Shown one piece after another: positions 3,398 to 28,159 of a stretch of 34,688 bases of DNA. This DNA comes from Candidatus Altimarinota bacterium. GTDB taxonomy: Bacteria; Patescibacteriota; Gracilibacteria; BD1-5; UBA6164. The stretch lies in the NCBI GenBank assembly GCA_027062145.1, contig JAMOTX010000050.1:1-34688 (forward strand), read 5' to 3'. Under the pieces are notes generated by a model, which was not told where the DNA came from, did no database searches, and was given only the letters and a program-made list of their open reading frames with translations. Both the position numbers and the translations under genes were made by a program. The first letter of the stretch is position 1, and every line of letters begins with the position of its first letter.

Positions 3398-3442
3398 ATG
3401 GCCAATTCCAAAAAAGGAAATTTATTTTTAAAACAAATTATT

Positions 3443-3805
3443 ATGTCAAATTCTGCAATAATAAAAATTGTACAAGAAGGGTTTTTACAAGAAGGTAGAG
3501 AACAAATTAAAACTGGTATGGAAGTTGAGGTTCACCAAATTATTAAAGAAGGTTCTAAAGAAAGAATTCAAAAATTTAAAGGTTTAGTAATTAAAACAGC
3601 TGGTAAATCTGCTTTAGAAAATACTATGACTGTTAGAAGAAAAATTGGTGCCTTTGGTGTTGAAAAAGTATTTGCTATACATTCTCCAACTATTAAACAA
3701 ATTGATATTATTAGACAATTTAAAGTTAGAAGAAAATCTATTAAATTTATTAGAGATCTTACTGGTAAAGCTGCTAGACTTAAAGAAGTTAAAAAAGCAA
3801 AATAA
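3443..3805 (+). CDS. rplS: 50S ribosomal protein L19
   Basis: Contains EGSKERIQKFKGLVIKTAG...TVRRKIGAFGVEKVFAIHSPTIKQIDIIRQFKVRRKSIKFIRDLTGKAARLKE. The start is set at ATG 3443, giving 120 aa. The in-frame upstream starts at 3377 and 3398 would add an uncharacteristic extension and overlap the putative -10 element. Confidence 0.88.
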   Translation: MSNSAIIKIVQEGFLQEGREQIKTGMEVEVHQIIKEGSKERIQKFKGLVIKTAGKSALENTMTVRRKIGAFGVEKVFAIHSPTIKQIDIIRQFKVRRKSIKFIRDLTGKAARLKEVKKAK

Positions 3806-19047: not shown

Positions 19048-19773
19048 TTATTTAGTTATTTTTATAAATTTTTCTTTTCAATTATTTTCAAAAAATAGAT
19101 ATATTTCATTACTATTTATTTCAGTAGTTATATCATTTTTATAAAACTTTTTATTTCATCATATATTCTTGATTATTAAGTTTTCTATACTTAAGGTTCA
19201 TGATTTATCTATTTTTGTATTTATCTTAATTATATTAAGATAATTATTTTTCTCTGGTTTTACATTATCATTTGAAAAATAATTTATTTTAATTTCATTT
19301 AATATTTCACCTGATAATGTTGCTTTTATTTTATAAAAAGGATCTGTATTAAAGCTAAATTCAAAATCTGTATTTGAATTATATTCTTTACTAGAAAATA
19401 ATTTTTGTTTTTTGAATATTTTAATAATACCTGTTCAAGAAGTAGTATTTGTTTTTATTATTCAGCTTCAAGTGTATGTATTTAAGTCAATATTTTGAGT
19501 ATATATATTATCAAATTTATTTAAATATACTATATATGCTCAGCTTTGAGTATTTGTATTAAATATTAGTTCATAATCAAAAATTTTATAATTTTTTACA
19601 TCTTTATCTAATTGCATTAAATTATTTTCAATTGTTTGAGTTCTTTGTTTTATTTGTTGATTTTTAATAAAATCTAAAAAATAAAAAACTGAAGAACTAG
19701 TTATAAGAGTAATAATAGAAATAACTATTATTAATTCAACTAATGTAAATGCTTTAAAAAGATTTTTTTTCAT
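19048..19773 (-). CDS. type IV pilin-like protein (prepilin N-terminal cleavage/methylation motif), 241 aa
   Basis: MKKNLFKA|FTLVELIIVISIITLITSS is a class III signal peptide with Glu at +5. Ala, not Gly, is at -1. The ORF continues past the TGA at 19540 to TAA at 19048-19050. The C-terminal domain is N/T/I-rich and has no Cys. Confidence 0.75.
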
Positions 19774-19775
19774 AT

Positions 19776-20828
19776 TTATTTTTTAATTAATGTTTCCACT
19801 ATTTTATTTAAAAATACAACAACAACAACTATTATAAAAAATACTATTATTTTTCATGTTTTATCTAAAAATAATGCTGTTAATCAAAATAAAAATGAAA
19901 GAGAATATACTAGTCATAATACTTTATTTTTATTTAATCATATTTTTAGTAATCTATGATGTAAATGTGTAAAATCTCATTCTAATGGATTTTTTTTATT
20001 TAATAACCTTTTTATTATTACATAAATAGCATCAACAGAATATATTCAAAAAACAACTAATACAGTAGCTATTTTTCATCATGCTATTATAGCTAAAGTA
20101 GCTAACATAAATCATAAAAACATTGTACCTGAATCTCACATAAGTATTTTTTCTTTTACATCAAACCACCAAAAAGGAATTATTATTCATACAAGAATAA
20201 TTGATATTCACATTATAAATTTAGCATTTTCTAATAGTAATACAGTTTCATCTCTATTAAATAGAATTATTCATAATAAAAATAATATAAAAAACGATAT
20301 AATAGATAATCAAGAAGTATTTCATTGAATTCAGTCTGTCCAATTTAATGCATTAAAAACAAATACGTACCATAAAATAGTAAAAAATAAAGGAATTAAA
20401 TATATAGTATGATTAAATAAATCTATATAATATGTTTCTAGATTGGCAATTCATCAAAATATATTACTTATGTATCATATTTTTATTGATGTAACTCAAA
20501 TAACTGCTCAAATTACTATTTGAAATAAAAGCCTTATTTTAGGACTTACATTTGCTCTATCATCTATATAACTTATTAAAGTTATTAAAAATCAGAAAAC
20601 CCAAATGAGTCAAAGTTTATAATTATAATCAATAAACAATGAGCTGATTATAAAAAATGAAATAAAAAATATTATTCCCATTGAATATGGAATTGGATTT
20701 CTTTTTAGTCAATATTTTTTAGGATTATCAAGAATTTTAAATTTATAAAAAAGCTTACTAAAACCTATTATTAATAGGAAAGAAGTAATTAATGAAAATC
20801 AGAATATTAAAATATATTGAAGTATCAT
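19776..20828 (-). CDS. glycosyltransferase family 4 polyprenyl-phosphate HexNAc-1-phosphate transferase (WecA/TagO-like), 350 aa
   Basis: SYIDDRANVSPKIRL; FNALNWTD-G-IQ-G-NTS-G-L; M-G-DSGTMFL-G-F; -G-DFTHLHHRLL. About 10 TM segments. Confidence 0.85.
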
Positions 20829-20934
20829 GTGAAAAATGTGTTTAATTAGTTTATTTAATAGTAATTTTAACTTTTTAAAAATCAAGAAAAAACTTATTTT
20901 TTTTCAAAAAAAAAGGGGTGAAAATTTTACTTTT

Positions 20935-21147
20935 CTACCTCTTAATAGAGATGGTTTCTTTATTAACCATTTCATTTACTTTGCCTTCGATGGCAATTTC
21001 ACCAGTATACTTACACTCTAAAATAATATAATATAATGGGACATCATCAATGTGCTTGTATTTTCCTGAACATTTAGTAAAACGCTTTATTCTATAGAAT
21101 CGTCCTTCCATTACAAAGCTTTTTCCTGTATTTTCGTCTTTTTTCAT
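20935..21147 (-). CDS. orphan small protein, 70 aa, with its own Shine-Dalgarno site and promoter-like elements
   Basis: aaAAGGAGAaaaaATG at 21147 and a true TAG stop at 20935-20937. It has no TGA codons (5 Gly, all GGN). Sequence: MKKDENTGKSFVMEGRFYRIKRFTKCSGKYKHIDDVPLYYIILECKYTGEIAIEGKVNEMVNKETISIKR. Confidence 0.6.
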   Translation of the reverse strand: MKKDENTGKSFVMEGRFYRIKRFTKCSGKYKHIDDVPLYYIILECKYTGEIAIEGKVNEMVNKETISIKR

Positions 21148-21185
21148 TTTTTCTCCTTTTTTGATTTTCTTAAAAATGAGAATTT

Positions 21186-21213
21186 ACTATAGTGATTTTA
21201 TATTCAAAGTCAA
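21186..21213 (-). promoter_or_regulatory. candidate promoter for the orphan ORF (TTGACT-16-TATAGT)
   Basis: On the minus strand, TTGACT is at 21213-21208 and TATAGT at 21191-21186, about 35 nt upstream of the Shine-Dalgarno site. Confidence 0.4.
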
Positions 21214-21238
21214 AATACAAAAAAATATTCTAAATTTT

Positions 21239-21916
21239 TTAAATATATTTTTTAATTAATTTTAAATAATATATAAAAACAGTAAGTGTTAATATGAAAA
21301 ATCCTAAAGCAATTCAGTCTAATGATCAATTATTAAAACTTATAATTACTCACCAAAGTGATCAACTAGTTAGAGCAAATATTCATATTATATTCAGCCA
21401 ATATTTTAAATTATCTTTTATACTAACAAGTCAGGTAGTTATAAATGAAAATCATATTGCTTGTAATATTGAATAAGATTGATAATTAAAATATTTTATA
21501 AATATTATAAATAAAAATATATTTAAAAAAACAAAAGTTGTTTCAGATAATATTTTAAAATCTTTTTTATAATTATAATATGTAAAAGCTTTAATTGCAG
21601 CTAATCAATAGGCTATTTGCCAAATTATATATTGAGATTGTCATAAGTAAATTAATCAATAAATTCATATTGTTAAAAATACTAAAGTACTAGAAAGTTG
21701 ATAAATACCTCAAATTTTATTATTTTTGTCTGTATAATTACTTTGCATTACCATTATTAATAAATTTCATATGAAATTAACTAAAAATAGTAATGTTATT
21801 TCAAAAATATTTCAATTTCATGTAAATCAAACAATAATTAATGCAAATATTAATAATATAGATATCCACCAATTTTTTCTTAAAAAACTTTTTAATTCTA
21901 TTAATAATTTATTCAT
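21239..21916 (-). CDS. polytopic membrane protein, 225 aa (possibly PnuC-like transporter; weak)
   Basis: I checked the frame codon by codon from the TAA at 21239-21241 up to 21721, and translated the rest to the ATG at 21916. It is open for 678 nt with more than 20 TGA codons and no TAA or TAG, which is improbable by chance in AT-rich DNA. Hydrophobic throughout, with short stretches such as TI-G-IY-G-LIYL-G-Q and ...KYWLNII-G-IF.... Confidence 0.7.
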
Positions 21917-27683: not shown

Positions 27684-27908
27684 ATGAAAGAAATAAAAGA
27701 TTTAAAACTACAAGAATTAGGAAAACTTATAGAATTAGACGAGAAAGGTTTAAGAACTGAACTTACTAAATCATCAAGAGAATTATTTTCTTTAAGAATG
27801 AAAAAAGAAGTTGGTGAATTAAAACAAACTCATTTAATAAAAGCTTTAAGAAGATATATAGCACAAATTAATACTGTTGCTACTTCTAAAGGATTAAATA
27901 TAGGTTAA
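27684..27908 (+). CDS. rpmC: 50S ribosomal protein L29, 74 aa
   Basis: LRTELTKSSRELFSLRMKKEVGELKQTHLIKALRRYIAQINT. This is an intact standard-code ORF ending in TAA. Confidence 0.9.
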   Translation: MKEIKDLKLQELGKLIELDEKGLRTELTKSSRELFSLRMKKEVGELKQTHLIKALRRYIAQINTVATSKGLNIG

Positions 27909-27931: not shown

Positions 27932-28159
27932 ATGAGAACTAAAAAAGGTGTTGTTACAAGCAACAAAATGGATAAAACAGTTGTTGTGTCTGTACATACT
28001 TATAAAAGTGATTCTAAATATAAAAAAAGATTTAGAGTAACTAAAAAGTTTTATGCACATGATGAAGATAATACTTGCTCTATTTGAGATCAAGTATTAA
28101 TTAAAGAAACTAGACCAACTTCTAAATTAAAAAGATGGGATTTAGTTGAAAAAATATAG
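27932..28159 (+). CDS. rpsQ: 30S ribosomal protein S17, 75 aa
   Basis: [66 protein letters not shown]. Confidence 0.94.

Follow-up and report, generated by a model that had tools for sequence, protein, structure and literature searches.

The locus described here raises the question of how a 70-aa open reading frame (ORF) that is led by a strong Shine-Dalgarno (SD) site and contains no TGA codon came to lie in a bacterial genome where TGA encodes glycine. The window that we analysed, 34,688 bp in length, is a whole contig (C50) of a 986-kb genome bin (G000) made up of 158 contigs, with a completeness of 81%, a contamination of 1.64% and a GC content of 23%. In the 726 ORFs of at least 100 aa in this genome, glycine is encoded by 10,824 TGA and 5,050 GGN codons, TGA thus making up 68% of all glycine codons. 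The region is present in five public sequencing runs, all of DNA (no RNA run is listed), and four of the five are labelled hydrothermal vent metagenome. An initial annotation of the window had set two explanations of the ORF side by side, recent acquisition from a standard-code donor and a gene under special translational control.

The ORF was present as the initial annotation had claimed, with a TAG stop, no TGA and all five of its glycine codons of the GGN type (three GGA, one GGT and one GGC), and the non-coding DNA of about 100 nt reported on either side of it measured 91 nt upstream and 106 nt downstream (Table 1). Other attributes were upheld in part. The SD spacing of 5 nt holds for AAGGAG, whereas the full heptamer AAGGAGA, whose GGAG core lies at 21156-21153, is 4 nt from the ATG. 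The promoter ascribed to the ORF is there as a sequence, but in this AT-rich DNA promoter-like sites occur at the level expected from shuffling (33 observed versus 27.2 +/- 5.1 in shuffles), and the site therefore counts for little as evidence. Likewise, the excess of C- and G-ending codons is visible in a third-position GC content (GC3) of 0.286, the genome mean being 0.112 (SD 0.061), although values as high are found in 30 of 905 ORFs and, among those of up to 100 aa, in 29 of 181. The lack of TGA, offered as a mark of foreignness, means little in so short a gene; it is not significant because only five glycine codons are involved, and 11 of the 43 ORFs with exactly five such codons are similarly free of TGA. 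The description of the other genes as 2-10 nt apart approximates the operon just downstream of the cassette, where the gaps are 5-12 nt, but not the rest of the window, where they reach 376 nt. At the 3' end of the ORF there is an interrupted hairpin with a U-run, whose function as a terminator is a prediction, because it was missed by a scan for consensus terminators and the 3' region as a whole had no significant z-score. The window held nothing over threshold in Rfam (the two matches in the cassette, at E values of ~0.3, were far below their cut-offs), and no tRNA genes were found.

Table 1. Features of the cassette and its surroundings. Positions are those of the window unless a congener locus is named.
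Feature	Position	Strand	Basis or remark
Type IV pilin-like gene, after the GT4 gene	19048-19773	-	N-terminal methylation motif PF07963, at cut-off; syntenic in congeners
Glycos_transf_4 gene (GT4, MraY/WecA-type), downstream neighbour, native	19776..20828	-	PF00953, E 2.2e-23
Inserted cassette, 410 nt	20829..21238	-	Between stop of membrane-protein gene and ATG of GT4 gene; gap in alignment with three congeners
Terminator-like interrupted hairpin and U-run	20906..20943	-	11 pairs, 4 G-C, stop codon enclosed; centroid -7.4 kcal/mol
70-aa ORF	20935..21147	-	ATG 21147-21145, TAG stop 20937-20935, zero TGA; orphan family
Shine-Dalgarno AAGGAGA	21152..21158	-	4 nt from ATG; AAGGAG 5 nt from ATG
Promoter-like TTGACT-16-TATAGT	21186..21213	-	10/12 consensus matches
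Membrane-protein gene, 225 aa, upstream neighbour, native	21239..21916	-	16 TGA; orthologues in congeners
TGA-free ORF, ~79 aa	L010 1126-1365; L012 1127-1366	-	Congener loci
GTG frame, 95 aa, counterpart of the 79-aa ORF	L011 1124-1411	-	Congener locus

Comparison with related genomes showed what the locus looks like when the ORF is absent. In all seven congeners in which the locus is assembled (G010, G007, G002, G008, G004, G011 and G006), only 1-2 nt separate the two flanking genes, and we therefore interpret the entire 410-nt cassette as an insertion in the studied lineage. When the DNA was aligned with that of three congeners, the sequence was conserved as far as the membrane-protein stop codon, after which a single gap corresponds to the whole cassette. 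The gene order in congeners is membrane-protein gene, GT4 gene and pilin-like gene, with pheS before them wherever the upstream DNA is assembled, and orthologues of the membrane protein were identified in nine of 11 congeners, each with 9-19 TGA codons. The start of the GT4 gene was placed at the ATG at 20828, and an extended frame of 399 aa was ruled out, because the congener orthologues begin with MI(I/L)QYL. No orthologue of the 70-aa ORF was found at the same locus in these seven congeners, and no homologue of its product was detected in 40 relatives (best E 0.003) or in 400 genomes sampled from the class; the weak tblastn matches in the relatives (E 0.003-0.26) were inspected and dismissed as noise. 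Terminal repeats or target duplications at the cassette did not rise above AT-rich noise, and its surroundings are not those of a prophage, its neighbours being pheS, the membrane protein, the GT4 transferase and the pilin-like gene, all syntenic in congeners.

The empty junctions could also be explained by an ancestral gene that was retained here and lost from the other congeners. The congeners that could be checked number only seven and are distant, with 22-60% identity in the neighbouring membrane protein, which leaves such a history some room. However, it would need repeated precise deletions, each leaving a junction of 1-2 nt, and no remnant of the gene is visible in the congener alignment; its SD site and lack of TGA, moreover, fit the imported class of genes described below. 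We consider ancestral loss very unlikely and continue with insertion in the studied lineage. Because the congeners are this distant, with values of 57-60% identity in the neighbouring protein within that range, the "recent" acquisition of the initial annotation can be read only as acquisition after the split from them.

A further small gene was seen close by. Three congeners carry a TGA-free ORF of ~79 aa between pheS and the membrane-protein gene, on the opposite strand, which is absent from the studied genome and is preceded by GAGGAGA in L010 and G007. The presence of this ORF in congeners and its absence here imply that the neighbourhood of the locus gained small foreign genes more than once.

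The product of the ORF, a protein of 8.3 kDa with a pI of 9.3 and no hydrophobic segment, has very few relatives. A HMMER search over 1.84 billion representatives returned one, P0002, a protein of 73 aa that is 65% identical in an end-to-end alignment (E 1.6e-25). Two variants that are 93-94% identical, P0003 and P0004, come from other sources and are contained in the protein's own cluster, the only cluster returned by a word-index search. Another assembly encodes the identical 70-aa protein, on a contig of 41.9 kb, and the contig of the 73-aa homologue, up to 427 kb long, could itself be from a code-25 bacterium. Among the four sequences 45 positions are invariant, including C26, C45 and H32. 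These relatives bear directly on the suggestion that the ORF is spurious or arose de novo from intergenic DNA. An ORF of at least 70 aa occurred in 140 of 5,000 shuffles of the insert, and the searches yielded neither a family nor a confident fold, as might be expected of such an ORF. A homologue of the same length at 65% identity, with so many positions invariant across four sequences, speaks against that suggestion, as does the congener junction, which offers no intergenic DNA from which a gene could be born. We regard a spurious or de novo origin as extremely improbable and, judging by this conservation, take the ORF to be a real gene of an orphan family.

The statement in the initial annotation that the protein could not be recognised was borne out by the family searches and by structure prediction. 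There were no Pfam matches at E<=1, Ribosomal_S21 included, none in PADLOC and none in PHROGs at E<=0.1, the homologue reaching E 0.12 at best. Searches with tblastn of 50,697 phage records and of plasmid records gave no match, and no relative turned up when genome, viral and metagenome contigs were scanned. AlphaFold2 models had a pLDDT of 49 from the single sequence and 36 from the four sequences, neither giving a usable fold. Candidates that surfaced in these searches were rejected. A resemblance to PedC/BrcD in NCBIfam (E 0.056) scored 13 bits against a cut-off of 120 bits; small viral hypothetical proteins in the ESM Atlas (score 0.83) were at chance level by the tool's own control; a uS17-like OB-fold was proposed by PDB profile matches over 49 residues to the N-terminal regions of eukaryotic uS17 (E 0.1-0.16), and the native S17 gene of the genome lies at 27932-28159 in the window. 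Identity with bS21 (rpsU, PF01165) was dismissed on the Pfam result. The product is small and basic and is probably a beta-rich cytoplasmic protein.

Since the SD site is the most conspicuous attribute of the ORF, its rarity was assessed across the genome. ORFs of 100 aa or more provided 713 starts, and 37 of these (5.2%) have GGAG, GAGG or AGGA within 20 nt, compared with 905 of 20,000 random sites (4.5%). SD motifs are thus at background level and not common genome-wide, and the cassette ORF is the only one of the 47 ORFs called on the contig with a strong SD site at its start.

The comparison with the 3' tail of 16S rRNA was made with family relatives, no 16S gene being found in the studied bin, an assembly that is 81% complete. 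The tail GGACTATCTCCTTA is present in all nine family members that have a 16S gene, two of which are congeners, and all nine genes end in ...GGACUAUCUCCUUA. The AAGGAGA of the cassette is the exact 7-nt complement of the UCUCCUU in these tails. In one sister family the tail reads CCUCUUU (6 of 6), another is mixed (five UCUCCUU and three UCUCUUU), and the canonical CCUCCU occurs in none of the 23 readable 16S tails of the order (loci L020, L021 and L061-L083). These tails give the impression that the anti-SD is drifting in lineages where SD sites are hardly used. A bS21 gene was not found in the 81%-complete genome either, in agreement with passages of PMC9297842 that describe bS21 as often absent from these clades.

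An association between strong SD sites and freedom from TGA emerged when 905 non-overlapping ORFs of at least 50 aa were classified, a strong SD being defined as a hexamer within 20 nt of the start and a TGA-free ORF as one with zero TGA and at least four GGN glycine codons (n=57). Strong SD sites precede 22 of the 57 TGA-free ORFs but only three of 809 ORFs that contain TGA (odds ratio 169, Fisher p 2.5e-25), and the 4-mer SD core precedes 28 of 57 and 15 of 809, respectively. Of the 22 SD-led TGA-free genes, 14 are flanked by TGA-containing genes on their contig and eight are at contig edges. The GC3 of the other members of this class ranges from 0.04 to 0.29, mostly 0.06-0.20, and resembles that of native genes, implying either that the donors were equally AT-rich or that residence has been long. 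Members assigned by Pfam include an M17 aminopeptidase (no TGA, 34 GGN), an Orn/DAP decarboxylase (no TGA, 32 GGN), a SAICAR synthetase, an MscS-type channel and an EEP nuclease, while an RNase J-like enzyme and a Clp-type ATPase are among the TGA-free genes whose sole motif is of a weaker AAGGA type. Ten other small or unfamiliar SD-led TGA-free proteins had no PHROG match.

Two of these genes had counterparts in congeners that could be compared. The M17 aminopeptidase is just 29-35% identical to its counterparts in five congeners, each of which contains 12-27 TGA codons, and the RNase J-like gene follows the same pattern; over both genes, the TGA-rich congener counterparts are 25-39% identical. 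For a 379-aa member of the class no counterpart was found in the same five congeners. As judged from this divergence, the aminopeptidase and RNase J-like genes are best described as xenologues and not as fast-evolving native genes. The nearest relatives of the aminopeptidase are unnamed metagenomic proteins (82%, 67%, then 44-60% identical). Its nearest named relatives are mostly from Campylobacterota, at 32-38% identity, which is too distant for a donor to be named; sampled genomes of the class reached at most 38%, and a pattern scan for donors gave relatives of only 28-36% identity.

The SD-led TGA-free class is not an artefact of the studied bin, as the same class is present in two congeners. 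In samples of 280 kb from G010 and 100 kb from G007, taken from contigs of 79-159 kb, strong SD sites preceded 2 of 10 TGA-free versus 1 of 232 TGA-containing ORFs in G010 and 1 of 4 versus 0 of 82 in G007, and most of the remaining TGA-free ORFs in these samples have weaker GGAG-type motifs. The GAGGAGA-led ORF of ~79 aa near the cassette locus is one congener example of the class. This replication is also relevant to the possibility that the cassette is an assembly chimera, or a bin contaminant, with DNA from a co-occurring standard-code organism. The bin is fragmented (158 contigs) and has measurable contamination (1.64%), four of its contigs (C68, C88, C74 and C140) are largely TGA-free, and the class members at contig edges (8 of 22) could be accommodated by such an error. 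In contrast, the cassette lies within a single 34.7-kb contig, with native genes on both flanks and the insert placed exactly at an intergenic junction; the identical protein is found on the 41.9-kb contig of another assembly, with variants in two more assemblies; and the congener members of the class are inside their long contigs. An error of assembly or binning is, in our assessment, a highly improbable source of the cassette, for which we keep to biological insertion.

The explanation that gives most weight to the SD site itself is that the gene is native and under special SD-dependent translational control. SD-poor Bacteroidia keep a few SD-led genes, such as rpsU, which encodes bS21. The studied genome is SD-poor in the same way, yet its family has retained an anti-SD to which the cassette SD is a perfect 7-nt complement, and strong SD sites also precede three TGA-containing genes, as native control would allow. 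Both the cassette and the SD-led rpsU of Bacteroidia thus present a rare strong SD in an otherwise SD-less genome with a retained anti-SD. However, the cassette protein is not bS21 and is not conserved in the lineage, being missing at the junction in seven of seven congeners as well as from the 40 relatives and the 400 sampled genomes of the class, and it shows no sign of autoregulation. It matches no family, Ribosomal_S21 included, in a genome (81% complete) where no bS21 gene was found, and SD-led genes here are overwhelmingly TGA-free xenologues. Special translational control, the second explanation of the initial annotation, is therefore unsupported, and we judge it quite unlikely.

The first explanation fared better. 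Acquisition from a standard-code donor agrees both with the junction that is empty in all seven congeners and with the membership of the ORF in the SD-led TGA-free class, and horizontal acquisition of such a gene is a known kind of event. We assign a probability of roughly 0.7 to the reading that the cassette is a horizontally acquired, self-contained unit from a standard-code, SD-using source that was inserted after the split from the sampled congeners. Under this reading, the sigma-70-like promoter of the cassette would yield a short mRNA, whose AAGGAGA leader, complementary over seven bases to the UCUCCUU found in the 16S rRNA of the host's family, could pair with it and recruit ribosomes by a route that the native SD-less genes, with their A/U-rich leaders, would not use. 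With no TGA and a TAG stop, the frame gives one and the same product whether translated with code 11 or code 25. The hairpin and U-run would terminate the transcript, and the product may be, as a guess, an accessory protein of mobile-element origin.

An extension of this reading, which we offer as speculative and unlikely, is that the genus draws on a "bilingual" pool of cassettes without TGA codons, with TAA or TAG stops and with a strong SD matching UCUCC, the variant anti-SD of the lineage, these traits being kept by selection. Selection might act through continued shuttling of the genes between the code-25 cell and either standard-code bacteria or code-compatible phages. Alternatively, an SD site might be the sole way for an incoming gene to compete for ribosomes that are tuned to SD-less leaders.

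Several observations made in the course of these analyses concern TGA-free or SD-led genes more broadly. TAG stops are commoner in SD-led TGA-free genes (7 of 22) than in TGA-containing genes (92 of 809). An identical 16-nt string, AAAAGGAGAAAAAATG, occurs at three genes, at 21145-21160 in the window and at the starts at 2136(-) in C53 and 4263(-) in C98; the C53 gene (85 aa) contains a TGA codon. A 443-aa gene at C113:2407-3735(-) has 12 TGA codons and an AAGGAGT 5 nt from its start, which is three codons after a stop, and could be an older import that is now gaining TGA or a native SD-led gene. [quoted passage not shown] Six short contigs (C68, C88, C74, C140, C151 and C156) have a code-11 long-ORF ratio of 0.45-0.83, compared with approximately 0.2 or less for most contigs, and may be explained by foreign islands of larger size, by a mobile element or by contamination of the bin.

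A second kind of TGA-free ORF has no SD site and an A/T-rich leader. Examples are found at C40:6759-7451, C76:836-1201, C158:5980-6321, C13:6787-7050, C83:4510-4746, C25:1287-1502, C23:430-699 and C110:265-462 and, in the window, at 3398-3802 and 27684-27905. By their N-termini these are presumably ribosomal proteins, HU and cold-shock protein, and native, highly expressed genes seem to avoid TGA as a glycine codon.

In its architecture, the cassette is comparable to phage morons, which are autonomous units of promoter, gene and terminator located between two genes that are adjacent in relatives. The likeness extends to a promoter-like site of its own, a ribosome-binding site, a single ORF, a terminator-like hairpin, a differing GC3 and a position between genes that abut in relatives. 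Unlike a moron, the cassette lies in an operon of a bacterial chromosome and not in a prophage, and both its promoter and its terminator are predicted. TGA-free phages compatible with code 11 have been linked to Gracilibacteria in the passages of Liu et al. 2023 (PMC10746230) that deal with them. As described there, genes of such code-11/25 compatible phages, linked to Gracilibacteria and Absconditabacteria, have, like the cassette ORF, no in-frame TGA, a non-TGA stop and a link to a code-25 host, whereas the cassette is a single chromosomal unit between housekeeping-type genes for which no phage homology was found. The abstract and section 7 of that paper, and the wording of its main text, make no mention of ribosome-binding sites.

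Gene inflow into a related genome has been described by Moreira et al. [quoted passage not shown] On that account, both cases concern foreign genes entering a code-25 CPR genome that is otherwise losing genes, but those of V. lugosii were found by phylogeny, whereas the genes here were found by the combination of SD site and lack of TGA, orphans included. Passages of PMC9297842 and PMC6851277 do not describe this combination as a mark of chromosomal genes that were imported.

What deserves further work in these results is the genome-wide signature together with the variant anti-SD, the 70-aa gene itself being an ordinary orphan until it is given a function. Imported genes become recognisable from sequence by a strong SD and zero TGA, even where they are orphans without a phylogeny. 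The signature offers a count and a rough dating of gene inflow across the code boundary, with the single-step change from GGA to TGA serving as a clock, and it permits a search for donors in vent communities. Potentially, if the bilingual pool were real, recoding would amount to a leaky firewall whose entry ticket is readable, and the 70-aa protein would be a shuttling accessory gene. The retained but altered anti-SD of these SD-poor genomes represents a separate lead on the evolution of translation initiation in CPR bacteria.
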